Positions 10,410 through 26,879 are shown, numbered from the stretch's first letter. The stretch: DNA of 64,000 nt from Candidatus Sysuimicrobium tengchongense (GCA_031460175.1 JAVKGW010000001.1:469738-533737); one strand, 5' to 3'. Numbers and translations are program-made. Notes: generated from the letters alone by a model not told the origin.

Positions 10410-10573
10410 GGGACCGCTCCGGGGCATATGGGAACCCCACCGGCCGCCCCCTCCGAGGACGCGCCGGGCGCCAGGCCGCCAGGGGCTGGTGGGAGGGGAT
10501 CGCCTGGCGGGCGCGGCCGGTTTGGGCGGAGGTTGCCGCGGGAAAAACTGTCCGGAGCCGCACCTGAACTGGG

Positions 10574-10888
10574 TCAGCCGGTGCGGGTCCTGAGGGCTTC
10601 CTGGAGCATGCCGCGGATCTCACGGAGGTCCTCCCGGAGCTCCGCCAGGCGGGCGTCCACCTGGGCGAACCGGGCGTTCATGTCGGAGCGGAGATCGTCA
10701 ATGCGCCGGTGGACGTCATCGAAGCGTACGTTGACGTCGTCGAAGCGCCTGTTGGCATCGTCGAAGCGCCTGTTGACGTCGTCGAAGCGCCTGTGGATGT
10801 CGTCAAAGCGGCGGTTGTTGTACAGGACGGCCACCAGGACCGCGAGGACCACGGTCACCACGATGGTTGCCACCTGGTCCCAGCCCAT
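10574..10888 (-). CDS. small N-terminally anchored coiled-coil protein with heptad RRFDDxN repeats
   Basis: One TM helix (VATIVVTVVLAVLVAVLY) followed by RRFDDIH/RRFDDVN/RRFDDAN/RRFDDVN/VRFDDVH/RRIDDLR. ATG at 10888. Confidence 0.6.
   Translation of the reverse strand: MGWDQVATIVVTVVLAVLVAVLYNNRRFDDIHRRFDDVNRRFDDANRRFDDVNVRFDDVHRRIDDLRSDMNARFAQVDARLAELREDLREIRGMLQEALRTRTG
10694..10819. repeat. six tandem 21-bp (7-codon) repeats inside the coiled-coil gene
   Basis: Unit about GTCGTCGAAGCGCCTGTTGAC. Copies at 10694, 10715, 10736, 10757, 10778 and 10799. In frame, with no spacers. Confidence 0.85.
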
Positions 10889-10947
10889 GGCTCCATGGTA
10901 CCACGTGGGACCGGGCGTAGGCCCTGGGCAGTGGGTACAATCAGGTC

Positions 10948-11037
10948 GGAGGGGTGCCAGAGTGGTTGAATGGGGCGGTCTTGAAAACCGCTAGGACCGA
11001 GAGGTCCTCGGGGGTTCGAATCCCTCCCCCTCCGCCA
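10948..11037 (+). tRNA. tRNA-Ser(UGA): tRNA-Ser (anticodon UGA), class II with long variable arm, CCA encoded
   Basis: Hand-folded cloverleaf. Acceptor GGAGGGG/CCCCTCC, anticodon stem GCGGT/ACCGC with loop CTTGAAA, variable arm GGACC-GAGA-GGTCC, T-arm GGGGG-TTCGAAT-CCCTC, discriminator G plus CCA. Confidence 0.9.
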
Positions 11038-11039
11038 GA
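10985..11039 (+). repeat. attL-like 55-bp direct repeat (anticodon loop to 3' end of tRNA-Ser plus 2 nt)
   Basis: Identical to 26825-26879: AAACCGCTAGGACCGAGAGGTCCTCGGGGGTTCGAATCCCTCCCCCTCCGCCAGA. Confidence 0.9.
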
Positions 11040-11404
11040 AACCCGCTCCAGTACTGGGTCGTGGCGAGCCCCTTTTCCAGGAGGGCGTGGACTTACCCCG
11101 CTTTCGTGGAGAGTGTAGCGCTGAGAGATTCCTGTCCGCTCAACCACCTCCTCTTGAACTCCTCAGGGGATAGGTAACCTAGAGCTGAGTGTCGGCGCCG
11201 GCGGTTGTAGGAGGCTTCCAGGTAGCTGAACAGCACGGAACGGGCCTCCTCCCGGGTTTGGAACCGGTACCGGTCCAGGACCTCCCGGTCCAGGGTGGCG
11301 AAGAACGCCTCCGCACAGGGCGACCTCGTAGGCGTCCCCCTTGCGGCCCATGGACGGCAGGATCCCCGCCGCCCGCAGGCGAGCCCCGAACCGCAGGAGT
11401 GTCT

Positions 11405-11432
11405 CCCCACGAAGTCTTCGGACTTCGTGGGG
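11405..11432. repeat. perfect 12-bp-stem palindrome inside the IS3 remnant (copy 1)
   Basis: CCCCACGAAGTC-TTCG-GACTTCGTGGGG. Confidence 0.85.
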
Positions 11433-11899
11433 CCCCTGGTGTATTGCGCCCCACCACCCACAGCCGGTCCGGCTCGGAGGCCCGGAACTGCTCGGGCCAC
11501 CAGGTCCGGCGCCGGTGTAGCCTGCGGGTCCCGCGCCGTCAACCCGCGTCGCCGGCGCCGGTACGCCCCCGCTAGTCCCGCAGCCCGCATCAGCCGCGCT
11601 CAGTCGCTTGCGCCCGCACCGCACCCCACCGGCCCGCAGCTCCGAGGTCACCCGGGGTGCCCCGTACGTCCCCCGCTACCCTCCCAGATGGGTCGGATCC
11701 GCTCCAGCAGCTCCTGGTCCTCCTGCTTCCGCCGGCTTGGCCTGCGACTGCGCCACGCGTAGTACCCGCTGAGGGAGACCCTCATCTCCCGGCACATCCG
11801 CGCTACCCCGTGGTTCGCCCTCTCCCGCTCCTACCTGGCCAAACGCCTTTGCGGCTTGGACGGTCTTGGGAGCGAAGAAGGCGGCCGCTCCCCCGGGGT

Positions 11900-11926
11900 C
11901 CCCGTGAAGTCGGAGACTTCACGGGG
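11900..11926. repeat. perfect 12-bp-stem palindrome inside the IS3 remnant (copy 2)
   Basis: CCCCGTGAAGTC-GGA-GACTTCACGGGG. Differs from copy 1 by a compensated AC/GT swap in both arms. Confidence 0.85.
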
Positions 11927-12116
11927 TGGCTTCAGGATCTCCCGCTCCTCCCGCAGGATCCGCACTTCCCGCCGATACGGAGGTCTGCTCTTCGGCATCG
12001 TGGACTCCTTTCCTGAGGCTCTTGCCTCTCAGTCTTAGGGTGTCCACGAAATCGGGGCAAGCCTCACATCCGTGATGTGTGTACACCATACCGGACAGTC
12101 CAGGACCGCAGGCCTA

Positions 12117-12520: not shown

Positions 12521-13714
12521 TCAGAGCGTGATGCGGGCCCACGGCAGCCAGTCAACCCAGTAATAGCGGTCGCCGGGGCCACGGTACAGAGTTCCCACCT
12601 GGATCTCCCATTCGGCAGTCGCCGGCCGCAGCGCGCTCACCGGCAGGGCCATCCCGATCAGCGCCTCTCGAGCGATCACCGTGAGCCCTTCCACGTGAAC
12701 GGGTTCCACGTTCTCGATCCTGCGGGCTTCGTCCACCAGGACCACACGTCCGAACACGTATCTCCCGGTAGAGGGGAAATACCGTAACCGCCAGCGGGGG
12801 ACGCTCGATCCGGGTAGCCTCCAGCTCACCGATATCTCCGCATCGCCCATGGGTGTCTCATAGAGCGCGATGAACACGAACAGCGCGCCGCTCCTCACCA
12901 CATAATAGGCCTCGCGGATTGCCAGATTCACGGGCGTCCGGATCTCGCCGTTCTGCGGCGTAGGTCCCTTCCGGCCGATGAGTCTCAGCTCCCGCGGGTC
13001 CAGGCCCACGCCGGGTGTTGGCGTCGGAGCCGGCGTCGGAGGAGTCTGGACGACGGGCGGGGTGGTAAGCGCATACGGAGCCTGCAGAGCGAGCCGCGCC
13101 ACGTCCCGCGCGGCCTCGCTCATCACCGCGAATCCGATCCCTGCCGCGCCCCGAATCCTGCTCACCACGATCCCCACCGCCTCACCCCGGCTGTTCAACA
13201 CCGGGCCGCCGCTGTTGCCCGGGTTCACGGAGGCGTCGAACTGCAACAAGCCCTGATCCACCAGCACCCGGCTGACGATCCCCCGCGTGACCGTGAAGTC
13301 GTCAAACCCGATCACCTCCGCCAGGGGATACCCGAGCACCACCACTTCCTCGCCCACCCGGGGACGACCTGCCGCAAGCGGAATGAAGGGCAATCCCTCC
13401 TCCCCTACCCGCAAGGCTGTCACGCCCAGGGCTTGGCTGGTGTGCGCCACGACCGCCACCATGGGCCGGCGATTCGGGAGCCGCACGGTTACCTCGCTCG
13501 CCCCCTCCACCACGTGAGCGGCCGTCAGCAGAAGCCCTCGGGCGTCGTACACAAACACGGATCCCTGACTCAGGCCGCTCCCCGTTCGTGCCACCACGAT
13601 GGCCACCGCAGGCCTTGCCCGGTCCACCAGATCGGCGACTCCCTGCGCGGCAGCCAAACCTGCGAGGAGCACCGCCAAAAGACCTGCTGTCAAAGATCCC
13701 ACAGACCGCTTCAT
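12521..13714 (-). CDS. secreted trypsin-like (S1) serine protease with Pro-rich linker and unassigned C-terminal beta-rich domain
   Basis: Signal peptide. TAAHVV (His), catalytic Asp candidate not pinned (e.g. ...IGFDDF... in the LGYP block), NPGNSGGPV (Ser). A PTPAPTPTP linker is followed by about 170 aa with no motif I recognise. ATG 13714 follows GGAGGTG. Confidence 0.8.
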   Translation of the reverse strand: MKRSVGSLTAGLLAVLLAGLAAAQGVADLVDRARPAVAIVVARTGSGLSQGSVFVYDARGLLLTAAHVVEGASEVTVRLPNRRPMVAVVAHTSQALGVTALRVGEEGLPFIPLAAGRPRVGEEVVVLGYPLAEVIGFDDFTVTRGIVSRVLVDQGLLQFDASVNPGNSGGPVLNSRGEAVGIVVSRIRGAAGIGFAVMSEAARDVARLALQAPYALTTPPVVQTPPTPAPTPTPGVGLDPRELRLIGRKGPTPQNGEIRTPVNLAIREAYYVVRSGALFVFIALYETPMGDAEISVSWRLPGSSVPRWRLRYFPSTGRYVFGRVVLVDEARRIENVEPVHVEGLTVIAREALIGMALPVSALRPATAEWEIQVGTLYRGPGDRYYWVDWLPWARITL

Positions 13715-13726
13715 CTTCCCCACCTC

Positions 13727-14122
13727 CTACCCGACTTGCTCCTTCAGATCCCGTGGCTCCGAACCAGACAGGCGCCTTCCGCCTCGGCTCATGAGCCTTC
13801 CCCTCTGACTCCTGCGCAGGAGCCCCTTCTGCCGCAGCCCGGAGTCCCACTTCACGGTTCGCACCAACCCCTCCCGGCCTACCACCACTGTCAGACCCCG
13901 CAGCCGGTCTGCTTCCCGGGCCAGGCCGAGCCGGAGCAGAAGCCGGTCCGTGATCCGGTACACCAGGTCCCCCTGGTCGTAGGCAGGTTTGGCCTTCAGG
14001 GCCACTTCCAGGTCTTCGGGCCGCACGCCCCGCTGCTGACAACGCCGCCGGGCGTGCTCGCTGAGCGTTACCTCCCGCACAAAATCCACTTCTTCTCTGA
14101 TCTGCCGCCCAAGCCCCGCCAT
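13727..14122 (-). CDS. DUF4258-like small protein (possible toxin-fold)
   Basis: VTLSEHARRRCQQRGVRPEDLEVAL resembles the DUF4258 H-A-x2-R-x3-RGI core. ATG at 14122. Its stop lies 12 nt upstream of the protease ATG at 13714 and sits inside that gene's RBS. The 292-aa track ORF upstream of this ATG looks spurious. Confidence 0.4.
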   Translation of the reverse strand: MAGLGRQIREEVDFVREVTLSEHARRRCQQRGVRPEDLEVALKAKPAYDQGDLVYRITDRLLLRLGLAREADRLRGLTVVVGREGLVRTVKWDSGLRQKGLLRRSQRGRLMSRGGRRLSGSEPRDLKEQVG

Positions 14123-14237
14123 CGGATCCGTCAAAGTGCAGAAGCATGTCCCGGTGGGCTGTTCCTCTGACGGGCCTGCGCGTCTGGCTTCAAGGAACTC
14201 TTCTGCCCTCTGCCGAAGTAGACGCCCAAACCCCTCC

Positions 14238-14265
14238 GGCTCTTTACAGGCCGGGCCGGTTTCTC
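14238..14265 (+). promoter_or_regulatory. island-specific motif copy A (GGCTCTTTACAGGCC-N8-TTCTC) upstream of the sigma gene
   Basis: The same 15-mer plus N8 plus TTCTC is found on the minus strand at 16023-15996. It ends 10 nt before the sigma-factor GTG. Confidence 0.4.
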
Positions 14266-14275
14266 GGAGCGGGGT

Positions 14276-14821
14276 GTGGATCGGGAAGGGGGCCGGGAGG
14301 CCTTCGAACGGTACCGCAGGGGAGAGGCGGAGCCGGACGCACTTCTTGCCTGCCTGCAGGAGGAAGGCCGACACTGGCTGGCCGTCCACTTCCCCAACCT
14401 GCCCGAGGCCGACCGGGAAGACCTCCTCCAGCAGGCCCTGGTGGCCGCCTTCTATGCCCTCCCCCGTCTCCGCGGGGACTCCTACGACCACCTCCGCTCC
14501 TACTTCCTGACGACCCTCCGCTCGAAGGTCACGGATCACCACCGCCGGAGGTACAGGGAGGTGGTGGGACTCCCCGGGGCGTCCGATGGGCCTGCTGAAC
14601 TCCAACAGGAACTCCCGGCACAGGAGCCGTCCGGGTTCGAGGAAGTGGAGCTCCTGATAGACCTCGCCCGGGTGCTTTCTCCGGAGGAGTACCGGGTGGC
14701 CCGGCTCAAGATGGAGGGCTTCTCAGACCGGGACATCGCCCGCATCCTCAGGAAGGCCCCCGGTACCGTGGCCGCCCTCTGGCACCGGTCCCGTCGGAAG
14801 ATCCAGGGATTCGGCACGTGA
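14276..14821 (+). CDS. ECF-type sigma-70 family RNA polymerase sigma factor
   Basis: Region 2 (EDLLQQALVAAFYALPRLRGDSYDHLRSYFLTTLRSKVTDHHRR) and region 4 HTH (LSPEEYRVARLKMEGFSDRDIARILRKAPGTVAALWHRSRRKI). Confidence 0.75.
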   Translation: MDREGGREAFERYRRGEAEPDALLACLQEEGRHWLAVHFPNLPEADREDLLQQALVAAFYALPRLRGDSYDHLRSYFLTTLRSKVTDHHRRRYREVVGLPGASDGPAELQQELPAQEPSGFEEVELLIDLARVLSPEEYRVARLKMEGFSDRDIARILRKAPGTVAALWHRSRRKIQGFGT

Positions 14822-14849
14822 AGGCCTCGGCCTCGGAGGGTGCAGACCT

Positions 14850-15785
14850 CTACGGGGTCCCGAGCCCCCGGGGACTCCCACTACAGCCGGATCTCGGCCC
14901 GGGATCCCTGGGCACGTTCGGTCGTCCGAGAGCATGAGTCAGGGCCAACCGCGCCACTTCCAGATCCTCGGGATGCGGTCGAGCGGTGGTCAGGCGCTGG
15001 ACCCACAGCCCCGGCAGGAGGACGAACCGGATCCGGGGCTCCGCGAAAGCCGTGAGCCTGAGGATCTCCCCCCAGGCGAGGGCCCAAAGCTGGATCAGCC
15101 CCCTCGTTTGCCCTGTGACCACGTAGCCCGCGGCTAGGAACGGGAGGCTGGCGACCGCGAGAGTGGCCCCACACCGTGTGGAGATCGGCTCCGGCGGCTC
15201 GTCGGGGGCCAGTTCCGGTCCCACCACCACATGCTCGGCTCCGTGCAGCCGCCGCAACCGCTGTATTGCGGACCACGGGCCGGCCATCGCGCGTACAAGG
15301 CCGAGCAGCACAAGCCATCCCCCGACGGCGGGAAACAGCCACCACCGGAGTGAGAACGCCCTCGGCGGCCCCCACAACGTCCACGCACAGCCCACGCGCG
15401 GCCCCACCACCATGATTCCGGACGGGAAGCTCATGGCCCACCATACCCGGGGCTCCCATCCTTTTCGGTAGATGTGCCCGGCAGCGATCCCCGCGCCCCA
15501 GGCGCTCATGAACGCGTCCCACCACCCCGCCCCGGTCTCCGGCCATCCGTTAAGACCAGCCGCCAGCCCCCAGAGAACGCCAGCACCGCAGGCCAACCCG
15601 ATCCGAAAACGGCCCCACCAGAGCGTGGCCAACCAGACCGCGAGTGAGGCCAGGCCGACAGGCAGCGCCGCTGCGTTCGGGAGGAACCTCCCTACGCCCA
15701 ACGCCGCGAGGCAGGAGGCCGTGATACACGCGACCTTCCATGCTTCGCGTCCCGAAGCCCCGTGCCTCAGAGGTCGTCCGTCCAT
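14850..15785 (-). CDS. polytopic membrane protein with DUF1385-like C-terminal half
   Basis: LHGAEHVVV...STRCGATLAV...GLWVQRLTTARPHPEDLEVARLAL matches the DUF1385 HGAEHK / RCGT / LQ.LTT.EP..Q.EVA motifs. The N-terminal half is W/G-rich TM helices. Start assumed at ATG 15785; the track ORF extends to 16106. Confidence 0.5.
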   Translation of the reverse strand: MDGRPLRHGASGREAWKVACITASCLAALGVGRFLPNAAALPVGLASLAVWLATLWWGRFRIGLACGAGVLWGLAAGLNGWPETGAGWWDAFMSAWGAGIAAGHIYRKGWEPRVWWAMSFPSGIMVVGPRVGCAWTLWGPPRAFSLRWWLFPAVGGWLVLLGLVRAMAGPWSAIQRLRRLHGAEHVVVGPELAPDEPPEPISTRCGATLAVASLPFLAAGYVVTGQTRGLIQLWALAWGEILRLTAFAEPRIRFVLLPGLWVQRLTTARPHPEDLEVARLALTHALGRPNVPRDPGPRSGCSGSPRGLGTP

Positions 15786-15953
15786 GGTCCCAAAAGGACG
15801 CGCCTCCCGAAAAGCCGCACATCCCGTGGAGAACTTCCGGCCTCCTCCACCTGGCATGAGCCGCTCGGTCGCGAGGAGCAACCTCCCCGTCCTTCTTACC
15901 GGAAGGCCTTTGTCAGTAGCCTCTGTTTTTCGGAGACGTCCGGGCCGGCCGGG

Positions 15954-16023
15954 TTCTTTACAGGGCCCTGAAAAGTCGGTCCGGAAAGACCGGATGAGAA
16001 TTCCCCTGGGCCTGTAAAGAGCC
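15954..16023. promoter_or_regulatory. inverted pair of the CTTTACAGG(G)CC motif with nested TCCGG-AAAGA-CCGGA hairpin, in the divergent intergenic region
   Basis: TTCTTTACAGGGCC (15954-15967) faces GGCCTGTAAAGAGCC (16009-23). The latter, plus TTCTC at 15996-16000 (minus strand), is motif copy B. Confidence 0.4.
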
Positions 16024-16092
16024 CGACCCCCGACGGGCGTCTCCACATTCGGAGGGCACTGTGCAAAACCATCTGGTTCGGGGAGGCGCCAC

Positions 16093-19000
16093 ATGGGACA
16101 CGCCAACCTGCGGCTGGTGCGGGAGGTCGCTGCCCGGATCCCGGACCCGAAAACCCGTTCGCAGATCCTGGGAGAGGTTGCCGGGATCCTGGGCAGGGCC
16201 GGTGCGCCCCAGGAGTTCGAGCAGGCTTTCGCGGAGGCCCTTCAGGCCTTGCGGGAGGCCGTCACGTCGAAGTTCTCCAGGGCCCTGACAAGATCTCGAC
16301 ATGGCCCGGCTGAACCCTCCGGAGACCTCGCCCCTTCGCCTGCGGAAGACCGGGACGAGGCGGACGACCTGGCTGATGAGGACGCAGACATGGAGTCCGA
16401 AGAGCCAGCACCAGACCTCGACCCACTCCAACTGCTCCCTACCGTGACCCGCGAACGGCTGAAGGCCGTGGAGGAAGCCGCGAGGTCAGGGGACGCGCGA
16501 CACCTGCAGGAGGCCCTGGACCTGGCACTGGTCCCTGTGCTCGAGCGGGACGCCCACGAGCGCGCCGCGGCCCTGGGAACCCTCGCCGGGGTCCTTCTGC
16601 GACTCGGCCGCCCCCAGGAGGCCGAGCGGCTCTTTGACGAAGCCCTGCGGGCCTACCGGGACATCCGCGGTATCCCCGGCCCCTGGGGGATTTACGGACA
16701 CACACAACTCCAACGACAGCGCCAGGTCATCGCCGTCTGGCGCCAGGCACTCCGGGAGCTGCTGCACGAAGGCGAGGCGGAGCGTATCCTGCGGTGGGTG
16801 ATCAGGGGTTCCGACCCCGACTTCAACCCTCTGCTCAAGGAATGCGCTTACCCGTTGGCACGTGCCGGGAAGCTGCACCTCCTCCTCGAGCACCTCCCGG
16901 ACCTGGACACGTTCCGGGACACCATCGCGGCGCTCGCCCGTTCCGGCCATCTCCCCGAGATCTCCCTCGCGGTCAACGCTCTGTGTACCCGACCCCACGT
17001 GTTGTCCGGAACGCCTCTCAACAACCTCCTCCCGCGGCTCGCGCAACTGACATCCATACTCGCCGAACTGGGCCTCCACGAGGAAGCGGAGCGGCTTTCC
17101 CAGCTCGGCCAACGCCGGCTCCTGGCGGCCGCCCGAGCTTTCCTGTCGGAGCACGCCTCGAGCCGTCAACCTCCCTCCCTGCCCGAGTTCGCCCTCCTTG
17201 AGGAGGACCCGCCGCCTCCGCACAAACAGGAGGAGATGGAGCAACATGAGGCACAAGAGCCCGAGATGTGGTTCCAGAAGGCAGAAAGGGCCGTGGAAGT
17301 GCTGGAAGAGGCCTTCGACTTGACCGAGTGGCTCTGCGCCAGCGGGCTGTCCGGGGTGGCCGCAGCCATTCTCGATGCCGTCGAGGACTTTCTCCTCTTC
17401 CTGGAGGAGGAGATGGTGGAGGAGGATCTTGGCGACTCGGCAGAGCTGCTCGTCCGTGCCGTCGCCAACCTGGCGGCGGCCGGTCGCGTGAGAGACGCCG
17501 TGCGACTTCTGGACCACCTTTTCCAAACCGCCGAACACGTCTGGGAAGACTATCTCAAGTACGCCATCGCCGCGGACCCCGATGGCGGCTTCCACTCGTT
17601 CCTGGAAGTCCTGCAAAAGCGCTGTTCGGACGTCGTAAGGGCCTTCCTGGACGCGGGTGCACAAGAGGAAGCCCGGAGGTTCTTCCACGCCGTCAGCGCA
17701 GCCTGCGAGTTCGGCCCGGCAGAAGAACGCAAGGCCTTGGAGCCGGTTTTGCAGCAGCTGATGGAGAAAGGAGACCTGGAGGCGGCCCGGCAGGTCCTGT
17801 GGCTGGCCAGGCCCTCCGTGCGGCGCCAGCTGCTTTCCACCATCGCCGGCTTCGCCTCTTCAGGCACAGCGGAGTGGGCGATCCCGTTCGTGCAGGCCGC
17901 GATGCGGGCGGCCGTGAGAGCCGTGTTCGGGCCGGACAAGATTCTTCTTCCTCGATCGCCGCTCGATGTCGAGGAAGAACCCTGGGAGCGGCCAACCGGG
18001 CGGAAGCGCTCTAGCGTCTGGTTGCCGGCAGATCTCCGCTCGCACATCCGAGGGATCGCTTCAGGGTCGGGATCGGACTTGTGGGTCGAGGAGGCCGCGC
18101 TGGCAGCCACCGCCTGCTGGTCCGACGAGGCCCTCGCCGGGTGCGTCGAGGGGCTGGGAAGCCTCGGCCGCTTTGGGGAGGCCCTGGTCCTCTCGTCCGG
18201 CATCTCTGACGTGCCGACCCGTTTCCGGGTCCTGAACGGCCTTCTCTCCCGGATGGAGCAGGAAGGCTACCTGAGCGAGGTCGAGCAGCACGCGGAGTCG
18301 GAGTTCGACCCGGAAACCCGCGCCGTGCTCCTCGCGGCCATCGGGGATCGCCTCCGGGCGACCGGGCAGACCGAAGAGGCCCGGGCCAGATTCCGGGAAG
18401 CCCTCGAAGCTGCTGAGACGGCGGGCCGGTCTGCGGTGCTGGCCCAGGTCGTCCGCGCCGCGGCCGAGCTGCTCCCGGATGCCTCCGAACGGTGCCTGAG
18501 CTCCGTCAGGGGGATCCCGCGCCCCGAGGCCCGGTGCCAACGCCTTTTGGATCTCGCAGTTCCGTCCGCGCAACTCGGCCTGTGGGACATCGTGCGGGAG
18601 GCCATCGAGGTCGGAGTGGATGTCTACGATGAGGGATGGCCCGACTGGGGCGAGCTGGGGAGGAAGCTCGGGGCCGCTGTGGCCTGCACCGGTTCTGCGG
18701 ACGGGATCATCCAACTCCTCAAGACCGTAGCGGGCTGCCTCAGGTTCGTAGACTCCCCGGAGATCGGAGCGCACGAACTCGTCGTCGGTATCTCCGAGGC
18801 TGTGGCCTGGGAGGCCATCCGGGAAGGCGCCCCCGGGGACCTCGTCGAAGCCATGCTGGGGGAACTGAGCGCCTTCCCCCCTTACGCCTCGCTGATGGCC
18901 CTGGTGGGGCTGGCTTCCGTGTATACGCAGGCAGGGCGAGGGGAGGACGCGAACCGCATTCTCACCCAGATCACCGAGGTGGTGGACTCGGCGTTTGCCG

Positions 19001-19707
19001 AGGGCGTAGAAGAATGGGAGGAAGACGCGTGGCAGGGCGCGGTGGGTTACTTGCTCGACGTCGGGATGTTTGACCTCGCTGCCCGAATCGCGGAGACGCT
19101 GGGGGATCCCGACTCGGCCGGCGAGGCGCGAAACCTGGCGGAGTCCGCGCGTCTGCTGCGCTCCGGCGAGCCGGAAGAAGCTGCCCAAAGTCTGCAGAAC
19201 CTGGTTCGCCGGCAGCAGCGCCAAGTCATGACGGCGGTTTTGAGGGAAGGGGAGGCCGACCGGGTGCTGACCGTGGCGAGGCGGCTCGGGGGCGAGGCTC
19301 TGGCGGAAATCGCGGCCTCCGTCGCGCGCCGACTGGTAGGGGAAGGCCGGCTGCAGGAGGCCAGCGCTCTGGTCGGGGAGGTCGAGGACGGCCTGCGACG
19401 AGCAGAGCTCTGGTTGGAGATCGCACAAGCGGCCGCCCGGGATGGGAATCCCGCAGACGAGTACTTCCGGAGAGCCCTGCAGGAGGGACAGGGGGCGGGG
19501 CAGACCTCCCGCCAGCCGGGGCGCCGGAAGGCGGCGGAGCACACGGTTCTGCGGATAGTACAAGCCGCAGCCCGGTCCCTGGGGCCGGAACAGGCCGCAG
19601 GCCTCGCCGCCCTCGTCAAGAACAGGACGTTGCAGGCCAGAGCCCTGTGCTCCATCGCTTTGGCTTCCGCAGGATCCCTCCCACGCCGGGCCGGACGCCA
19701 AGCATGA
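16093..19707 (+). CDS. 1204-aa all-alpha helical-repeat (TPR/HEAT-like) protein, function unknown
   Basis: ATG 16093 lies 6 nt after GGGGAGG. No NTPase or catalytic motif visible. Acidic linker (PAEDRDEADDLADEDADMESEEPAPDLDP). Repeated A/L/E/R-rich helix-hairpin texture throughout. Confidence 0.7.
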   Translation: MGHANLRLVREVAARIPDPKTRSQILGEVAGILGRAGAPQEFEQAFAEALQALREAVTSKFSRALTRSRHGPAEPSGDLAPSPAEDRDEADDLADEDADMESEEPAPDLDPLQLLPTVTRERLKAVEEAARSGDARHLQEALDLALVPVLERDAHERAAALGTLAGVLLRLGRPQEAERLFDEALRAYRDIRGIPGPWGIYGHTQLQRQRQVIAVWRQALRELLHEGEAERILRWVIRGSDPDFNPLLKECAYPLARAGKLHLLLEHLPDLDTFRDTIAALARSGHLPEISLAVNALCTRPHVLSGTPLNNLLPRLAQLTSILAELGLHEEAERLSQLGQRRLLAAARAFLSEHASSRQPPSLPEFALLEEDPPPPHKQEEMEQHEAQEPEMWFQKAERAVEVLEEAFDLTEWLCASGLSGVAAAILDAVEDFLLFLEEEMVEEDLGDSAELLVRAVANLAAAGRVRDAVRLLDHLFQTAEHVWEDYLKYAIAADPDGGFHSFLEVLQKRCSDVVRAFLDAGAQEEARRFFHAVSAACEFGPAEERKALEPVLQQLMEKGDLEAARQVLWLARPSVRRQLLSTIAGFASSGTAEWAIPFVQAAMRAAVRAVFGPDKILLPRSPLDVEEEPWERPTGRKRSSVWLPADLRSHIRGIASGSGSDLWVEEAALAATACWSDEALAGCVEGLGSLGRFGEALVLSSGISDVPTRFRVLNGLLSRMEQEGYLSEVEQHAESEFDPETRAVLLAAIGDRLRATGQTEEARARFREALEAAETAGRSAVLAQVVRAAAELLPDASERCLSSVRGIPRPEARCQRLLDLAVPSAQLGLWDIVREAIEVGVDVYDEGWPDWGELGRKLGAAVACTGSADGIIQLLKTVAGCLRFVDSPEIGAHELVVGISEAVAWEAIREGAPGDLVEAMLGELSAFPPYASLMALVGLASVYTQAGRGEDANRILTQITEVVDSAFAEGVEEWEEDAWQGAVGYLLDVGMFDLAARIAETLGDPDSAGEARNLAESARLLRSGEPEEAAQSLQNLVRRQQRQVMTAVLREGEADRVLTVARRLGGEALAEIAASVARRLVGEGRLQEASALVGEVEDGLRRAELWLEIAQAAARDGNPADEYFRRALQEGQGAGQTSRQPGRRKAAEHTVLRIVQAAARSLGPEQAAGLAALVKNRTLQARALCSIALASAGSLPRRAGRQA

Positions 19708-20813
19708 AGGGGCGACAGAACGGAGACCAACTGAGGCAGGCCCTGTTGAGGTCCAAACCCGGCCCGGGCCCGGATTGTCCGGACGACCTTACCGTGTTCC
19801 ACGCGGCCGCGGGGCTGCTCTCCCATGCCGAGCAGCAGGCCTTCGAGCGCCACCTAGAGGGGTGTCTAGCCTGCCGGGACCGGGAACTCGAGACCCGCAA
19901 GCTCCTGCACTTCGAGCAGCACCGCATCCCCTACCGGATCGACCCTCAGACCGGCCGGATTCGGAGGGTTTCCCGGATCCGCCTCCTGCTCTCGGCCCTG
20001 CACCCTCAAGCGCTGCTCCGCGGGCTCACAGACCTGGCTCCCAAGCGCTTGGCCATCGCCCTCGCCTTTCTGCTCGTGGCCCTCCTGGCTTGGTCCCTGG
20101 CCTCCCCGGCCCTGGCCCGCTCGCCGGCGGTCCTGGCCGCAGCAAAACAGGTGCCCGTGGTCCGCTGGTTGCTCCCGGCCTCGGTGCGGGAGTACCTGGA
20201 GGCGAGCCTGCTCGCGGACCGGATGGGCAGGCTCCCCCTCGGAGGGAAGGAATGGCAGGACCTGGCCGCCCGGGCAGAGGGGCACCTCAAGAGGGCCCTC
20301 CGGATGGATCCCGCCTACGTGGACGCACACATCCTGCTGGGAGACCTGTACCTCGATCGCTCCTCCGTCAACCCGGCTTCCCCCGCTTCCCGCAGGTACC
20401 TGGACCTCGCCGAGGCCGCCTACAGACGGGCCCTCATCCACGATCCCCAGCACATCCAGGCCCGCTACGGTTTGGCGGAGGTCTACGCCACCAGGGGGGA
20501 ATTCGGCAAGGAACTGGAGCAGTACAACGCCATCCTGCGGCAGGACCCGAACGAGCACGATGCCCGACTGTTCCGGGGCTGGGTGTACCTGGAGCGGGGG
20601 GACTACGCGAGGGCCGCGGAGGATTTCCGGGAGCTCCTGAAGGAGGATCCCACGGACTGGGAGGCGGCGTGGGCGCTGGGGCTTGCGCGGGCCTTCGAAG
20701 GAAAGCCCCGGGAGGCCCTCCGGGAGGTGGAGCGCCTGAAGCCCCTCAACCCCGGCCGCGCGCGCCTGCTGCAGCACATCCTGCGGGCCCTGGAGAAGGC
20801 GGGCAGGAGGTAG
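19704..20813 (+). CDS. ZAS-type anti-sigma factor-like protein: zf-HC2, one TM helix, extracytoplasmic TPR repeats
   Basis: H-x3-C-x2-C (HLEGCLAC, 19851-19874), TM LAIALAFLLVALLAWSLA, and C-terminal TPR units (AYRRALIHDPQHIQARYGLAEVY, ILRQDPNEHDARLFRGWVYLERGDYARAAEDF). The ATG overlaps the upstream stop (ATGA at 19704-19707). Confidence 0.7.
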   Translation: MKGRQNGDQLRQALLRSKPGPGPDCPDDLTVFHAAAGLLSHAEQQAFERHLEGCLACRDRELETRKLLHFEQHRIPYRIDPQTGRIRRVSRIRLLLSALHPQALLRGLTDLAPKRLAIALAFLLVALLAWSLASPALARSPAVLAAAKQVPVVRWLLPASVREYLEASLLADRMGRLPLGGKEWQDLAARAEGHLKRALRMDPAYVDAHILLGDLYLDRSSVNPASPASRRYLDLAEAAYRRALIHDPQHIQARYGLAEVYATRGEFGKELEQYNAILRQDPNEHDARLFRGWVYLERGDYARAAEDFRELLKEDPTDWEAAWALGLARAFEGKPREALREVERLKPLNPGRARLLQHILRALEKAGRR

Positions 20814-20820
20814 CAGGACC

Positions 20821-21357
20821 ATGAAGGCCCACCACCGCACCGCTTCAGCTGCCTTGGCGCTTTTTCTCCTGTTCCTGGGAAGCGCCTCGCCCCTGCTGGC
20901 CGGAGGTCGCCTGCTCCTGTTCAGCGACGACGAGCACCGTCGGTTTCTAGGGTGCCTGAGCTGTGGCCGGTTCGACCCGGACTCCGTGCACAACCAGCTC
21001 AGTCGCTACGGGAGCCGCTATGCCCTCTACAGCATCTGGAACCCTGACGGCCCGTACAGATTCCCTTACTCCACCTACAGTGCCTGCAACCCATTCGTCA
21101 CGCGGCCTCCCGTCGTGCTGGGCGAGCACTGGACCTGCTACGGCCGTCTCACCCTCATCCTCTACCTTCCGGACGCCATCCGTGAGTCCGCGGCGGTCAC
21201 CTGGCTGCTTGGTGGCGTGCCGCAGTGGGTGAGGGACAGCGATGGACATCTGTGCAGCCCTTGGGTTGCCACGGCGACGGATGCGGGGATGTTCCAGGCA
21301 AGGAGGAGCGGATCGCTCCGAAAAGTGTTAATAAAAGTAAATAAAGTAAAAGGGTAG
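20821..21357 (+). CDS. secreted Cys-containing protein, function unknown
   Basis: Signal peptide (AALALFLLFLGSASPLLAG). The mature part has five Cys (FLGCLSCGRFDPDS...YSACNPF...WTCYG...HLCSPW). AT-rich K/V-rich tail. Confidence 0.6.
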   Translation: MKAHHRTASAALALFLLFLGSASPLLAGGRLLLFSDDEHRRFLGCLSCGRFDPDSVHNQLSRYGSRYALYSIWNPDGPYRFPYSTYSACNPFVTRPPVVLGEHWTCYGRLTLILYLPDAIRESAAVTWLLGGVPQWVRDSDGHLCSPWVATATDAGMFQARRSGSLRKVLIKVNKVKG

Positions 21358-21380
21358 GCGGAGGTGAGTCGTCTCGTACC

Positions 21381-24300
21381 ATGCGGACAGAAAGCGTACC
21401 GGCCCTCGCCGCTCTGACGTCCGACCAGCTCAGCCAGGTGACTCAATACCTCAACGCGTGGAAGCGCTCTCTCCTCGATCTCTCGGCTCGCAATCGGCTG
21501 CTTCATTTCCACAAAGGCCTGGCGACCCGTGTCCGCCTCGACCGCCCGGGGGTCCATGACCTCTACATGGCGCTCGCCGTCGGGGAGCGGTCGCTGGCTT
21601 TCCCCGGGCCACGAGGCATTGCCGTCGACGACCTTGAGCTCCAAGAGGCGGTCGACCCTTCGGATCGCGTCGCTCCAGGCGACCTGGAGACCGCTCCGCC
21701 GGTCAAGACCCTGAAGGACCTCAAGGACCTCTACCGAAAGCTCGAGCGCCTGCGCCGCGGAACGCGCACGATCTACGAAGAGCAGGGGGTCCACACGCTC
21801 TTCCTCGCGCTCGGTCTGCTGCAATGGCGAGAGGCGGACCACTCTGAAGAGACGATCGATAGCCCTCTTCTGCTCGTTCCGGTCCGTTTGGAGCGAACCG
21901 AGGAGCGCTACCTGCTCTGTCCGCACGAGGACGACGTCGAGGTCAACCCCGCTCTTGCTTACCGGTTGCAGCGCGATTTCGGCTTGACCCTGCCAGGGCT
22001 CGACGGCAATGCCGAGGAGCAGGCTCCCGCTGTGGCACTCGACCGGTTCTTCGGGGAAGTTCGAGATCTCGCGGCCCGCAAGGGCTGGACCGTCGTAGAC
22101 GAGGCATGGCTGGCGCAGTTCGCCTTCTACAAGCTCCCGATGTACCGGGACCTCGAGGCGCCCGGGGTGGCGGAAAGTGCGGCCACGCATCCCGTGGTGG
22201 CCGCACTGTGCGGCTTGCGGGAGCGGTCCGAGCCAGGGCCCGTCGACGTGCGAAGGGCCGAGGAGGAGTATGCCCGGCCGGAGCTATTCCCGGTCCTTGA
22301 CGCCGACTCAAGCCAGCTGGAAGTGATGGAGCAGGTCCGCCAGGGCAGGACCATTGTGGTGCAAGGGCCGCCTGGCACGGGAAAGAGCCAGACCATCGTC
22401 AACGTCATCGCCCAGGCCCTGCGCGAGGGGAAGAGAGTGCTGTTCGTGAGCGAGAAGAGGGCCGCTCTCGAGGTGGTCTACGAGCGATTGGAAAAGCTAG
22501 GTCTGGCCCGCCTGTGTCTCGACCTCCACAGCAGCCGGGCCAGCCGAAAGGCCGTCGTCGAAGACCTCATGGGCAGCCTGGACGACCTGAGGGCCTGGCA
22601 GGACCGAAGCGACCGGGCTGCTTTCGAGCAGTACCAGCGGCTGAGGAGTCAACTCGACGAGTATGTCCATGAATTGCACCGGCCCCGAGATCGTCAGGGA
22701 CGCAGCGCGTTCCAGGTCCATGGAACCCTGGCCCGCTTGCGGGACGTACCGCTGGTGACGGCACGACTTCCCTTCGAACGGATACTTGACGTCGAGCCTG
22801 ACCAAGAGGCTCGGGTCATCGAGTTGCTCGGACGGATCGCCAGGCTTGGTGTGTGGGACCACCAGCGAACCCACCCATGGAAGGACGCTGCACCGTCCGA
22901 CGATTTCGCGCCGATTCCCGACGCGATGGCGTCCCTTTGCAGCACGCTGAACCGAGTTTACGACAGCCTGCTGGCCCTTGCCGGCGAGATGGCCGAGTTG
23001 ACGGGGGTGCGGCCTGCCACGGCGCGGGAGGTGGAAGAACACCTCGATCTCGTGCGGCATCTGGCAAAAAGACCGTTGGTGACCATCCGGGAGTCATGGC
23101 TCAGCGCCGAGGCGGGGCAGCGAGCGTCGCTGGTACGATTCGCACGGGAGCTCGGCGAACGCATGGAACTGAGAAGGCAAGGCCTCGCATACCTTGAAAG
23201 CCTGGGCGTGGATCCGTCAGCCGACGCCGGCGAGTTCCGGTTGCTGTACGGGATGCTGGACCAGGCTGAGAAAGGCTCGTGGTACCGCCGGTTGGTCACC
23301 GAGTGGAAGGCGCAGCGGCGGCTGGGGCAGCTCTTGCGCAGGAAGCTGCGGCGCCGAGAGGCGGCAGCCGTGGTTCGGGCGCTGTTCGCCGTGCAGGATG
23401 CAGAGGCGTGGGTAACGGCCAACGGCGACCGCATCCGTACCGAACTGGGGCTGGAGCCTGCCCCGGATTGCCTGAACCGGACGGCCGATGCCACCGTGGA
23501 AGCCGTCGTGTGGACGGCCTCCACCGTGGAGGCGGCGGGAGGTCAGTTGCCTGAGGCACTTCGGCGAGCGATACTCGCCGATGACCCGGCGGCGATCCGG
23601 GCCAGGGCAGAGGCTCTGCTCGAACGGGCGTCATCCGCTCTCCTTGCGTTGGGGAGCGCGACCGCCGACGAGCACTTCGTCCGACTGTTCCCGAAGGGCG
23701 TCGGCGGGTACTCGTGGCACGATTGGCCTTTGGAGGAGGCCCGGGAAACCACTGTGACCTGGGAACGGGAAGCGGGCCGTTTGCCGGAGTGGCTCGAGCA
23801 CCTGCGGCAGATGCGGGCTGCGGAAGAAGCCGGGCTGTCCCCGTTTCTGACTGCTTGTCAGGCTGCGAGGGTTCCTGCGCGCCGTCTGCCCGATGCCTTT
23901 AAACGGGCCTACTTCACACAGTGGTTGCGGCGTGCGTACGAGAGTTCTGAGGTGTTGCGATCCTTCCAGGGGTACGAGTGGGAGGAGCTGCGCCGCAGGT
24001 TTCAAGAGCTGGATCGGCGCCTCCAGCAAGAGGCTGTAAAGGCGACCTTCGAGATGATAGCGTCGCGCCTGCCCGACCCCCTTCCGGCCGGCGAGTTGAC
24101 CGTCCTCTCTCGTGAGGCGAATAAGAAGCGAAGGCATCTGCCCCTTCGGAAGCTGTTCCCGCAGATCCCCAATCTGCTGTTGGCCGTCAAGCCGTGTCTC
24201 ATGATGAGTCCCCTCTCCGTGGCGACGTACTTACCCTGGCAGGTCTTCTCGTTCGACCTGGTCATCTTCGACGAGGCGTCGCAGCTGTTGCCGGGTGATG

Positions 24301-25466
24301 CCATCGGGGTGCTGTTGCGGGGCCAGCAGGCGGTGATCTTCGGGGACAAGAAGCAGATGCCGCCCACTGATTTCTTCCAGGCTCACGTGGAGGGCGACGA
24401 GGAAGAACCCGACGCGCAGGACTACGAGAGCATCCTCGACATCGCCAGCACCTATTTCCCTGGGCCGATGCTCAAGTGGCATTACCGAAGCCGCGACGAG
24501 CGACTGATCGCGTTCTCGAACAAGCATTTCTACGGGAGAACACTGGTGACGTTTCCGTCTCCCCGGCTGGACGGGGTTGACACAGGGATCTCCTTCGTCT
24601 ACGTCCCCGACGGCGTCTACGGGCGGGGAGGCTCGCGCACCAACGTGGTTGAAGCCAGACGGGTGGCCGAGCTTGTGCTGGAACACTGCCGCACCCGGCC
24701 GGACCTATCGCTCGGGGTCATCACCCTGAGCATCGAACAGCGGGATGCCGTCGAAGAGGCGCTGCGGCGGCTCATGAGGGAGCATCCGGAGCTGGTCTTG
24801 CCCCAAAAAGAGGAGTTCTTCGTCAAGAATCTGGAGACCGTGCAGGGAGACGAGCGCGACGTCGTCATCCTGGATATCGGATACGGCCCGTCGGAGCCCG
24901 GCGGGACCCCGTCGCTTCAGTTTGGGCCACTCAACCGAAGCGGAGGGGAACGGCGGTTAAACGTCGCCATCACCCGGGCCCGGTATCGGATGATTGTGGT
25001 CTCCTCGATGCAACCAGAGCAGTTGAAGGGCATCGTGCATCAGGCGCGCTGGGAAGGCCCCAAGTTGCTCGCGGAGTACCTCGAGTATGCCCAGCGTGGC
25101 GGTATGGGTGCCGGAGTGGATGGCACAGGGCAGCCGGAGAGCGAGTTCGAGGAAGCAGTCCGGGACGCGCTGGTCGCGCGGGGGTATCAGGTCGACTGCC
25201 AGGTTGGAGTCTCAGGCTACCGTATCGACCTGGCTGTGAGAGACCCGGATGCGCCGGGGCGTTACATCGTGGGGATCGAATGCGACGGGGCGACCTACCA
25301 TTCGGCGCGCACGGCCCGTGACCGTGACCGCATCCGGCAGATGGTGTTGGAATCCCTCGGGTGGCACATCGTCCGCGTGTGGTCCACGGACTGGATCCGT
25401 GACCCGGACAGGGTCACCGACCGGCTGGTGAAGTACGTTGAGGACGTTCGATGGAGAGACGGTTGA
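21381..25466 (+). CDS. DUF4011-type SF1 (Upf1/DNA2-like, AAA_11/AAA_12) helicase fused to a C-terminal Vsr/DUF559-like PD-(D/E)xK nuclease domain
   Basis: N-terminal LLDLSARNRLLHF / TLFLALGLLQW / SPLLLVPVRL (DUF4011). Walker A GPPGTGKS (22365-22388). FDLVIFDEASQ (Walker B/motif II). VGDKKQMPPT-like FGDKKQMPPTDFF. WHYRSRDERLI. GDERDVVI, LNVAITRAR (motif VI). C-terminus YRIDLAV...VGIECDGATYHS...GWHIVRVWSTDW (about 25146-25400). Confidence 0.85.
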   Translation: MRTESVPALAALTSDQLSQVTQYLNAWKRSLLDLSARNRLLHFHKGLATRVRLDRPGVHDLYMALAVGERSLAFPGPRGIAVDDLELQEAVDPSDRVAPGDLETAPPVKTLKDLKDLYRKLERLRRGTRTIYEEQGVHTLFLALGLLQWREADHSEETIDSPLLLVPVRLERTEERYLLCPHEDDVEVNPALAYRLQRDFGLTLPGLDGNAEEQAPAVALDRFFGEVRDLAARKGWTVVDEAWLAQFAFYKLPMYRDLEAPGVAESAATHPVVAALCGLRERSEPGPVDVRRAEEEYARPELFPVLDADSSQLEVMEQVRQGRTIVVQGPPGTGKSQTIVNVIAQALREGKRVLFVSEKRAALEVVYERLEKLGLARLCLDLHSSRASRKAVVEDLMGSLDDLRAWQDRSDRAAFEQYQRLRSQLDEYVHELHRPRDRQGRSAFQVHGTLARLRDVPLVTARLPFERILDVEPDQEARVIELLGRIARLGVWDHQRTHPWKDAAPSDDFAPIPDAMASLCSTLNRVYDSLLALAGEMAELTGVRPATAREVEEHLDLVRHLAKRPLVTIRESWLSAEAGQRASLVRFARELGERMELRRQGLAYLESLGVDPSADAGEFRLLYGMLDQAEKGSWYRRLVTEWKAQRRLGQLLRRKLRRREAAAVVRALFAVQDAEAWVTANGDRIRTELGLEPAPDCLNRTADATVEAVVWTASTVEAAGGQLPEALRRAILADDPAAIRARAEALLERASSALLALGSATADEHFVRLFPKGVGGYSWHDWPLEEARETTVTWEREAGRLPEWLEHLRQMRAAEEAGLSPFLTACQAARVPARRLPDAFKRAYFTQWLRRAYESSEVLRSFQGYEWEELRRRFQELDRRLQQEAVKATFEMIASRLPDPLPAGELTVLSREANKKRRHLPLRKLFPQIPNLLLAVKPCLMMSPLSVATYLPWQVFSFDLVIFDEASQLLPGDAIGVLLRGQQAVIFGDKKQMPPTDFFQAHVEGDEEEPDAQDYESILDIASTYFPGPMLKWHYRSRDERLIAFSNKHFYGRTLVTFPSPRLDGVDTGISFVYVPDGVYGRGGSRTNVVEARRVAELVLEHCRTRPDLSLGVITLSIEQRDAVEEALRRLMREHPELVLPQKEEFFVKNLETVQGDERDVVILDIGYGPSEPGGTPSLQFGPLNRSGGERRLNVAITRARYRMIVVSSMQPEQLKGIVHQARWEGPKLLAEYLEYAQRGGMGAGVDGTGQPESEFEEAVRDALVARGYQVDCQVGVSGYRIDLAVRDPDAPGRYIVGIECDGATYHSARTARDRDRIRQMVLESLGWHIVRVWSTDWIRDPDRVTDRLVKYVEDVRWRDG

Positions 25467-25933
25467 GGGACAGAACGGGCGTAGGACGGGAAAGGCCTGG
25501 GGGACCGGCTGCAACTGAACACCAGAGTGGCCAGTATCAGAAAGGTGTGCGCACCTCGGGCCTGGGCCCGGGCTATGACCCGCAGGCGCGTACACTGGCC
25601 TCGAGGGTCATCGGCGGTCCTCCCCGTCGCCCCATGGGGGGGTGTTGTCCAACGGGAAGGGTACGTCATACGACCCTCTTTCTTCACCGTAAACAGAACT
25701 CTGAAACGGTTCGCCCAAGTCCGTGGACCTCCACGACGCCGCCTTCCGGATGAAGGGCGCGGATCGCCCGCAGGGCTGTGTCCCGGTCCAAGGCAGGCTG
25801 GCTCACCGCCCGTACCTCCTCCACCAGGACCGTGATTTGCGTACTTGTCGGGAAGAGGAACTTTTGGTGCGATGCTTCACGGGATACACCTCCTTCTAAC
25901 TGGGTTGCGGTGCAGGCCGCGGCCTAATCTGTC

Positions 25934-26140
25934 TCAGGATCCGCGGCGCTGCGCCCCTTTCGAGGGCTTGCCTTCTTCTTTGCCCTCCAGCCAACGGAGG
26001 ACCGCCTGACGCCGGACGCGGATCGGCCGCCCCCACCGGACGACCCCGGGAACCAGCCCGCGCCGAATCGCGGCGTACAGGGCCTGGCGGCTGACGCCGA
26101 GGAGCGCCGCTAACGCACGAACCGTCATCAACTCGCCCAT
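25934..26140 (-). CDS. excisionase/AlpA-like helix-turn-helix DNA-binding protein
   Basis: MTVRALAALLGVSRQALYAAIRRGLVPGVVRWGRPIRVRRQAVLRWLE is the typical Xis/MerR-superfamily winged HTH. Located at the distal end of the island. Confidence 0.65.
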   Translation of the reverse strand: MGELMTVRALAALLGVSRQALYAAIRRGLVPGVVRWGRPIRVRRQAVLRWLEGKEEGKPSKGAQRRGS

Positions 26141-26258
26141 TGTTGACCTCCGCGCTGCATTCGCATCTGAGGGTATGAAAGCGCCTCGCCCCTGACGAAG
26201 GGAAGATCAGGGGGGCAGAGGGCCCCGATCTTCCAGACCAGAGAAGGAGGCGCGGCAG

Positions 26259-26760
26259 ATGCCGTATATCGCCTTTGACGTGCACAAGCACTACACGCTG
26301 GTACTGGGCGGTGGAGGAGGTGGAAGAGGCGGGCTGCGCCGGGAGTAGGGTTCATCCTGGCGGGGGTGATCCGCACGGAGGTCGGGGCCGTGAGCCGGTT
26401 CAGCCGGCCTGAGCACTAGAGCGGCCTACGCGGAAGTGGCCCTGCGGGTCCACGAGTCTGGGGGAAACGTCGGTATGAGGGTTGCGGATGGAGGCCAACC
26501 ACTGCCTGAAGTGGGCGTTCGTGGAGGCCGCCAACGTCTGCTGCCGTCTGCGGCAACGGTACCCCAACGACACACCAGTCGGCTGTACGAGCGCCTGCGC
26601 CCGGGCCGCCCGCCGGCGGGCGCGGTACTGGGCCCGACCCGGGGAATACCGGCGCAAGGCCCGAGAAAGGGTCCGACGGTCACGCCTCCGGCGGGCGGGG
26701 AGTTGGCACCAAATTGTCACCACTCGGCGCCACGCAGGGCCCAACACAGGACGACAGGAA
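26259..26760 (+). pseudogene. IS110-family transposase pseudogene (multiple frameshifts and an internal deletion)
   Basis: MPYIAFDVHKHYTL (N-terminal DEDD motif region) then a stop. Later fragments in other frames: VGFILAGVIRTEVGAVSRFSRPEH, VHESGGN, ANHCLKWAFVEAANVC, RLYERLR. Confidence 0.7.
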
Positions 26761-26824
26761 GCAACTATCGAACATCTAGGGTCCGCGCATGACTTAACTT
26801 CTGGCCACTACTATCGAACAGAGC

Positions 26825-26879
26825 AAACCGCTAGGACCGAGAGGTCCTCGGGGGTTCGAATCCCTCCCCCTCCGCCAGA
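26825..26879 (+). repeat. attR-like 55-bp direct repeat (orphan 3' part of tRNA-Ser)
   Basis: Perfect copy of 10985-11039. No tRNA 5' half upstream of it. Confidence 0.9.

Follow-up and report, generated by a model that had tools for sequence, protein, structure and literature searches.

The single-gene defence system Hhe reportedly goes back to Gao et al. 2020. It has been described as one gene that comprises a helicase and a Vsr endonuclease and defends Escherichia coli against lambda, T3, T7 and PhiV-1, and the substitution E1731A in its putative nuclease active site has been demonstrated to abolish defence (10.1101/2022.06.16.496414). The Hhe helicase sits in the superfamily 1 (SF1) clade SF1_Upf1 with MkoA and MkoC, and Nhi in SF1_UvrD (PMC10925250). 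With regard to accessory domains, MTES_1575 was originally defined as a 'novel Vsr-REase', and DUF3320 as a winged helix-turn-helix (wHTH) region overlapping tandem winged-helix domains (PMC3710099). Here we describe a gene at positions 21381-25466 of a 64,000-nucleotide (nt) stretch of Candidatus Sysuimicrobium tengchongense DNA (GCA_031460175.1, JAVKGW010000001.1:469738-533737; 'the window' denotes this whole analysed stretch), which encodes a protein of 1361 amino acids (aa) and which we regard, with good if incomplete confidence, as a stand-alone, horizontally moved defence cassette of the DUF4011/Upf1-like SF1 helicase/Vsr-fold nuclease/(wHTH) family.

The open reading frame (ORF) lies on the plus strand, begins with ATG and runs through 1361 codons without an internal stop or frameshift. 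Its features, in order along the gene, are given below.

21381-25466, plus strand: helicase-nuclease gene, 1361 aa (ORF translation, Pfam, PADLOC, NCBIfam, homologue search)
21471-21968, plus strand: DUF4011, aa 31-196 (Pfam, E 1.1e-30)
22365-22388, plus strand: Walker A motif GPPGTGKS with K335, family-invariant (motif check, alignment)
22731-24080, plus strand: insertion of ~450 aa in the helicase core, separating motif II from the Walker A part (Pfam, dN/dS)
24270-24284, plus strand: motif II, DEASQ (motif check, alignment)
24468-25010, plus strand: AAA_12, the RecA2 half of the SF1 core, aa 1030-1210, holding motif VI (Pfam, E 8.1e-14)
24957-24983, plus strand: motif VI, LNVAITRAR (motif check)
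25146-25433, plus strand: MTES_1575, Vsr-fold PD-(D/E)xK nuclease, aa 1256-1351 (Pfam, E 1.3e-38)
25218-25238, plus strand: YRIDLAV, nuclease region (motif check)
25275-25304, plus strand: IECDGATYHS, nuclease region (motif check)
25377-25394, plus strand: VWSTDW, nuclease region (motif check)

The original prediction, made from the DNA alone, had proposed a helicase-nuclease fusion with DUF4011 and a full SF1 motif set, and this is borne out by the Pfam matches to DUF4011, AAA_11 (from aa 309, E 9.6e-16) and AAA_12 and by the intact motifs, whose predicted coordinates, together with K335 as the Walker A lysine, were exact on checking. By its Walker A, DEAxQ motif II, motif VI and other SF1 motifs, the helicase core is of the Upf1-like SF1B type, and its sequence matches in the PDB were IGHMBP2, Upf1, NAM7 and Sen1; the PDB sequence search returned no solved structure of the Hhe/ProA type. 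The ~450-aa insertion holds no Pfam domain and has the highest ratio of nonsynonymous to synonymous substitution (dN/dS) in the protein, ~0.28. The AlphaFold2 (AF2) model of the DUF4011 region (aa 14-300) is confident, with a predicted local distance difference test (pLDDT) score of 84, and a Foldseek search with it gave no fold match in the PDB (best E 0.12). In a family alignment of 32 sequences (the window protein and 31 homologues), the helicase motifs show no variation, nor do K335, D1283, E1300, C1301, D1302 and G1303; H1307 is nearly invariant (at least 90%), and all of them are present in the window protein.

At the C-terminus, the AF2 model of the last 157 aa (pLDDT 80) found its best Foldseek matches in 3r3p, the catalytic domain of I-Bth0305I (template modelling score, TM, 0.74-0.81 on target), in the DUF559 protein 3hrl (TM 0.69) and in RAP domains; Vsr itself was not among the top 50 matches. 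Since the model matches 3r3p and 3hrl and the definition of MTES_1575 agrees, this domain is, by fold and residues, a Vsr-type PD-(D/E)xK nuclease with predicted catalysis, as the original prediction had held; the Pfam match to DUF559 is weak (E 9e-6). D1283, E1300, D1302 and H1307 are the putative active-site residues. Nucleases of the I-Bth0305I, Vsr and DUF559 kind are stand-alone or homing-endonuclease domains, whereas here the same fold forms the C-terminal module of a 1361-aa motor protein. The Pfam scan of the 1361-aa protein gave no match to DUF3320 and none to a PLD domain.

Among defence models, PADLOC PDC-S37 (PDLC05009) is the best match and the sole one that runs from end to end (1223 bits; aa 18-1357 of the protein on positions 4-1342 of the 1550 in the profile), although the last ~200 profile positions, which correspond to the DUF3320 tail, are unmatched by the window protein, whereas P0001 and P0004, two close relatives of full length, match the profile throughout; PADLOC states no score threshold for this model. 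The strongest NCBIfam match is to ProA (NF058533, 'anti-phage protein ProA'), which is collinear over profile positions 351-1707 of 1903 at 1177.5 bits, the window protein being without ~350 N-terminal and ~200 C-terminal profile positions. Hhe is matched by its NCBIfam model (NF042953, 'DUF4011 domain-containing anti-phage protein Hhe') at 861.4 bits and by its PADLOC model (PDLC02194) at 640 bits, the latter over the C-terminal half. On this profile evidence the window protein belongs to the DUF4011/Upf1-like SF1/Vsr-REase/wHTH family, probably as a sister-clade member of PDC-S37 type, and in this family ProA and PDC-S37 are its nearer named relatives and Hhe is the experimentally validated member.

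The likeness to Hhe can be followed in a 1911-aa protein (L093) from a conjugative Klebsiella plasmid, named Hhe by the Prokaryotic Genome Annotation Pipeline (PGAP), in which DUF4011, AAA_11, AAA_12 and MTES_1575 follow one another in the same order as in the window protein and which also has no Pfam match to DUF3320. Identity between the two proteins is 43% across the 573 aligned positions at the C-terminal end and 34% across 351 positions at the N-terminal end, and they share the nuclease motif IECDG..YHS..RDRDR..W. On the other hand, the DUF4011 match of the Klebsiella protein spans aa 30-308 as against aa 31-196 here, its AAA_12 begins ~425 residues later and a tail of ~130 aa follows its nuclease. 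In Klebsiella Hhe the glutamate of IECDG is residue 1727 and residue 1731 is Ala; E1731 of the published E. coli Hhe likely corresponds to E1300 of the window protein. Hhe is a single-gene system, and the window gene is likewise without a conserved partner across 84 other family loci.

This architecture bears on a further part of the original prediction, which had seen a logic analogous to known effectors with a different nuclease module and had turned to Nhi and Mokosh for comparison. DUF4011, an Upf1-like SF1 core and MTES_1575 are the known architecture of Hhe, and because the Hhe, ProA and PDC-S37 models match the window protein, the supposedly different module is the known module of a known family. 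Homology to Nhi is negligible (PADLOC E 0.0088 over ~40 P-loop residues), in keeping with the separate clades of the Nhi and Hhe helicases. Mokosh has an Upf1-like SF1 core in common with the window protein and a similar logic of helicase plus nuclease; the PADLOC matches to MkoA (97 bits) and MkoC (84 bits) cover helicase parts only. The nuclease of Mokosh type II is a PLD enzyme, of which Pfam detects nothing here, so that membership of that type does not hold; to our knowledge, Mokosh is without DUF4011 and without a Vsr domain and uses a different nuclease.

The extent of the mobile unit is given by DNA homology with the closest relatives.

21320-21366, no strand: 5' breakpoint of the cassette (DNA homology with relatives)
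25462-25480, no strand: 3' breakpoint, end of DNA homology with the full-length relatives L001 and L002 (DNA alignment)

DNA homology starts at 21366 with L002, 15 nt before the start codon, and at 21416 with L001. The window DNA is 90-92% identical to the contigs that carry P0002 and P0001, and the shared stretch extends from 21416 or 21366 to 25462 only. All proteins of the island on which the gene lies were compared by tblastn with 84 further loci of the family, taken with flanks of up to 10 kb; because the genes upstream of the helicase are found at 0 of these 84 loci and homology begins 15 nt before the start, the gene can be regarded as a stand-alone cassette. A GGAGG resembling a ribosome-binding site lies at 21360-21364. 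An AT-rich tract at 21320-21352 (AAAAGTGTTAATAAAAGTAAATAAAGTAAAAGG), in a genome of 69% G+C, makes up the last codons of a 178-aa ORF; its position agrees with the 5' limit of the stretch common to the relatives, and it may serve as a promoter region belonging to the cassette itself.

The relatives are found in varied surroundings, in which defence and toxin-antitoxin genes abound. Among close relatives, one copy of the gene is flanked by HepT and PIN toxin genes, another lies on an island of Geochorda that also carries GmrSD, a NERD-UvrD helicase, transposases or insertion sequence (IS) elements and toxin-antitoxin genes, and a third is found beside an SNF2-NOV_C helicase and an integrase fragment. 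The family comprises at least 5858 homologues at E <= 1e-20 and, among the matches listed, is spread over many bacterial phyla and archaea (Methanosarcina, Methanobrevibacter, haloarchaea). It is carried by 465 plasmid records, 212 of them conjugative and 117 mobilizable, and by essentially none of the phage genomes.

The original prediction had also placed the gene on an island, and this location is confirmed by an exact 55-nt repeat of tRNA-Ser. The island's defining features are the following.

10948-11037, plus strand: tRNA-Ser(TGA) (tRNA call)
10985-11039, plus strand: left copy of the exact 55-nt att-like repeat, the last bases of tRNA-Ser plus two more (repeat search)
11096-11590, minus strand: IS3-type transposase relic, an rve_2/rve_3 C-terminal fragment, at the island's left end (Pfam)
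25934-26140, minus strand: excisionase-like HTH_17 gene, 68 aa, at the island's right end (Pfam)
26825-26879, plus strand: right copy of the 55-nt repeat, a 3' fragment of tRNA-Ser, the island's right boundary (repeat search)

The two repeats, 15,840 nt apart, bound an insertion of 15.84 kb. No integrase gene is present on the island, and because of this absence and of the IS3 relic the island is to be seen as degraded; the helicase-nuclease gene thus sits on a degraded, tRNA-Ser-bounded genomic island. The G+C content is 0.63-0.66 over the gene as against ~0.69-0.72 in the flanks, with ~69% for the window. The island also holds an OB-fold protein, a trypsin-like protease and a DUF1385 fragment, and core-looking genes (an MFS transporter; CBS/BON/Usp proteins) lie to the right of the right repeat.

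The most consequential feature of this copy is what it has lost. The stop codon, TGA at 25464-25466, comes directly after the nuclease, and the linker and DUF3320, ~255 aa in relatives, are absent. Beyond ~25480 no DNA similarity to the contigs of the full-length relatives is left, and neither tblastn with the relatives' tails nor a hidden Markov model (HMM) built from these tails found DUF3320 anywhere in the 64-kb window. The closest homologues, P0001 (91% identity, 1635 aa) and P0002 (89%, 1618 aa), and P0004 of Geochorda subterranea (68%, 1645 aa) all possess the tail. With the tail HMM, DUF3320 was found just downstream of the nuclease at 68 of the 80 other loci of the family, and all close relatives whose sequence extends far enough are among them. 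Because the nearest relatives, at 89-91% identity, carry the tail and DNA homology stops at ~25462-25480, the loss must be secondary; judging by these comparisons, the absence of DUF3320 is a lineage-specific loss and not a design feature. The original prediction was right in reporting the absence of a tail that often follows in this architecture.

In P0007, a seemingly tail-less homologue, the tail is a separate ORF 22 nt downstream (L090, a Chloroflexota metagenome-assembled genome, MAG, contig PSLM01000044.1); the winged-helix module of such a split gene may be capable of working in trans. At 9253-9963 of L090, the 1368-aa helicase-nuclease ORF is followed by a 236-aa DUF3320 ORF and then by an integrase fragment. 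Five further homologues of ~1610-1630 aa (P0028, P0029, P0031, P0033 and P0034) have a DksA/TraR-type zinc finger (PF01258) and no DUF3320 match on record, and domain content therefore varies within the family.

Misassembly does not explain the truncation. The identical 1361-aa protein is encoded on six contigs, including two MAGs (GCA_031458615.1 and GCA_031458735.1); seven hot-spring metagenome runs dated 2022, 2023 and 2024 (at least 6 samples, three studies) contain the whole of the junction region 25000-26000, and a 14.8-kb contig at depth 20 covers 14000-26875 with zero differences.

The preferred reading of a stand-alone, horizontally moved defence cassette, for which an anti-phage (conflict) role would be the best functional reading, has to be set against several points that weigh on the other side. 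The scores remain below the curated NCBIfam equivalog cut-offs (ProA 1177.5 against 1500 bits, Hhe 861 against 2000 bits) and the window protein is therefore an orthologue of neither; the full-length relatives P0001 and P0004 are under the ProA cut-off too (1245 and 1251 bits). PDC-S37 is a candidate, computational model only, and a literature search for it gave no paper; the paper behind the NCBIfam name ProA was not found by such a search either, and that for DUF3320 returned only the 2013 HEPN paper. The island is decaying, as seen from its missing integrase and IS relic. In Pseudomonas aeruginosa, a defence hotspot is flanked by a large DUF4011 gene that belongs to the core genome (PMC10250203), and not every family member need therefore be accessory. 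From the one metatranscriptome, a 3% sample yielded a single mapped read, which is evidence neither for nor against expression. Finally, with the tail kept at 68 of 80 loci, retained as a separate ORF in L090 and absent from the window, the copy could be crippled.

This last point leads to the alternative that survives best, namely that the gene belongs to the same family and is a dead or dying relic, in which the tail deletion inactivated the protein and the ORF is intact only since the event is recent. Besides the tail's occurrence throughout the close relatives, in L090 as a separate ORF, this explanation can draw on the abrupt end of homology at ~25462-25480, which is followed on the opposite strand by an apparent gene fragment of ~50 codons at 25690-25842 (read by eye, without Pfam support), on the state of the island, and on a nuclease-domain dN that is slightly higher in comparisons with the window (0.057-0.068 as against 0.045). 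However, all 1361 codons are free of stops and frameshifts and none of the invariant residues of helicase and nuclease has been lost; dN/dS between the window and its full-length relatives is 0.21-0.23, no higher than the 0.24 among these relatives themselves (Nei-Gojobori), so that no relaxed selection is visible, in a comparison that cannot isolate the time since the deletion. The recurrence of one allele in runs dated to three different years, and a PGAP-named Hhe without Pfam-detectable DUF3320, which indicates that the domain set alone can suit defence, also argue against a relic. We consider this explanation unlikely, although it deserves to be taken seriously.

The genes upstream of the cassette, all on the same strand, comprise the following.

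14276-14821, plus strand: sigma factor of the extracytoplasmic function (ECF) type (Pfam)
16093-19707, plus strand: 1204-aa tetratricopeptide repeat (TPR) ORFan (TPR_12 at aa 136-189, E 7e-9; homologue search)
19704-20813, plus strand: TPR protein; read from 19647 (388 aa), it includes a zf-HC2 anti-sigma domain (Pfam)
20821-21357, plus strand: 178-aa protein whose N-terminal stretch reads as a signal peptide (sequence reading)

In the left half of the island, at 12521-14821, lie a Trypsin_2 protease with a signal-peptide-like N-terminus, the ECF-type sigma factor and small unknown ORFs. The protease and sigma genes and the zf-HC2 anti-sigma/TPR gene look like a self-contained envelope-signalling module. 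TPR-type repeats are the sole family matches of the 1204-aa ORF, which had no homologue but itself at E <= 1e-10 among 5.8 billion proteins and is for this reason a very large lineage-specific gene.

It can be asked whether the tail-less protein is still active, DUF3320 being dispensable or purely regulatory, or whether the cassette has been captured under ECF-sigma/anti-sigma control and so under an envelope signal. Either would be an improbable outcome in our judgement, albeit one with consequences: an active tail-less enzyme would be a natural experiment showing that a protein of this family, most of whose members keep DUF3320, can do without it or needs it for regulation alone, and capture by the ECF module would mean that an envelope signal controls the expression of a cytoplasmic anti-phage nuclease.

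The original prediction had gone further and placed the gene in an operon with sensor-like proteins, which would make it a new kind of effector, with a nuclease module not used before, acting in one operon with the upstream TPR 'sensor' proteins. TPR proteins are sensors in some defence systems, and the genes share a strand and are tightly spaced (ORFs 16093-19707 and 19704-20813 overlap by 4 nt, and gaps of 7 nt and 23 nt then lead to the helicase start). On the other hand, the architecture is that of Hhe, and homologues of the TPR, anti-sigma, 178-aa, sigma and protease genes were absent from the 84 loci, the single exception being a generic TPR match at a distance of 5 kb in a MAG of Methanosarcina. 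When all ORFs in the flanks of these loci were clustered, no real neighbour family recurred in more than 5 of them; upstream ORF clusters in 14 and 10 loci were read as antisense ORFs over longer ProA-type N-termini and were rejected as partners. The lack of any homologue of the 1204-aa protein, the resemblance of the zf-HC2 anti-sigma, ECF-type sigma and signal-peptide-like 178-aa proteins to an envelope-signalling module, and the fact that relatives at 90-92% DNA identity share the helicase gene only (homology being limited to 21366-25462) likewise speak against such an operon. The upstream genes thus appear not to be partners of the helicase, and the new-effector explanation, which we hold to be very improbable, is already largely refuted.

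A host housekeeping role in DNA repair or RNA surveillance as an Upf1/DNA2-like helicase-nuclease, with no part in conflict with phages or mobile elements, is scarcely credible, for although the helicase core is nearest to IGHMBP2, Upf1 and Sen1 among solved structures and a DUF4011 gene is core in P. aeruginosa, this gene lies within a tRNA-bounded island of lower G+C, the contexts of its closest relatives differ and are not syntenic, the family is frequent on conjugative plasmids and patchily spread, archaea included, and its named members are anti-phage proteins. The conflict role favoured by the original prediction is the best reading.

Several observations on the surroundings of the cassette can be added. 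Just upstream of tRNA-Ser, inside or beside ORF 10119-10994, five overlapping 42-nt copies with a 21-nt periodicity (TCGTCGAAGCGCCTGTTGACG-like) lie at 10695-10820. The degraded IS3-family element just after tRNA-Ser (11040-12030) has a metagenome word depth of up to ~1000-3000 as against ~10 for the rest of the island, and related IS copies must therefore be very abundant in the hot-spring community. In runs X4 and X3, contigs at depths of 147 and 19 (with the island at ~10 and 7) join 11042, just after the left att copy, to 26698; this junction, of which only 28 nt fit on the shorter side, may be that of a more abundant island-less relative or an IS-related join. Just downstream of the gene, 25584-25680 is covered in several runs by many short contigs with depths up to ~2400 as against ~10 for the island, and represents some abundant repeat or shared element without an Rfam match; nothing credible was found by Rfam downstream of the helicase-nuclease gene, and a promoter and terminator scan remained at background level. 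The stretch 26260-26700, at first taken by eye for an IS110 transposase relic, received no support from Pfam, and this reading was dropped.

Regarding how a defence cassette of this kind might work, Upf1-like SF1B helicases such as Upf1, IGHMBP2 and Sen1 move with 5'->3' polarity. By analogy with its family, the protein would load on nucleic acid produced during phage infection, and, as in Hhe and the Upf1-like SF1B clade, would translocate in the 5'->3' direction driven by ATP through K335; the Vsr-type nuclease, with D1283, E1300, D1302 and H1307, would then cut or nick, and phage replication would be stopped. The trigger may lie in phage DNA-metabolism functions and not in one protein. For Hhe, PhageMaP points to class II DNA-metabolism genes of T7 as candidate triggers, and g40 of Bas63 is toxic only with hhe (10.1101/2024.10.10.617714), which suggests that a consequence of phage DNA metabolism is sensed and not a single protein; phage counter-genes exist too. 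Loss of the winged-helix tail may have removed or changed DNA targeting or autoregulation, and since a named Hhe is without Pfam-detectable DUF3320, the remaining domain set may perhaps be enough for activity.

What is new in this locus is a hot-spring, high-G+C, truncated member of a family that is already large and modelled, and beyond annotation it matters little. Nevertheless, it can be seen from the cassette boundaries at ~21366 and ~25462-25480 that the gene travels as one unit, and the truncated gene is a natural domain-deletion variant with regard to the function of DUF3320. The mechanism of Hhe and ProA being poorly known, and DUF4011 being without a fold match in the PDB, any tractable member of this family is of some value.

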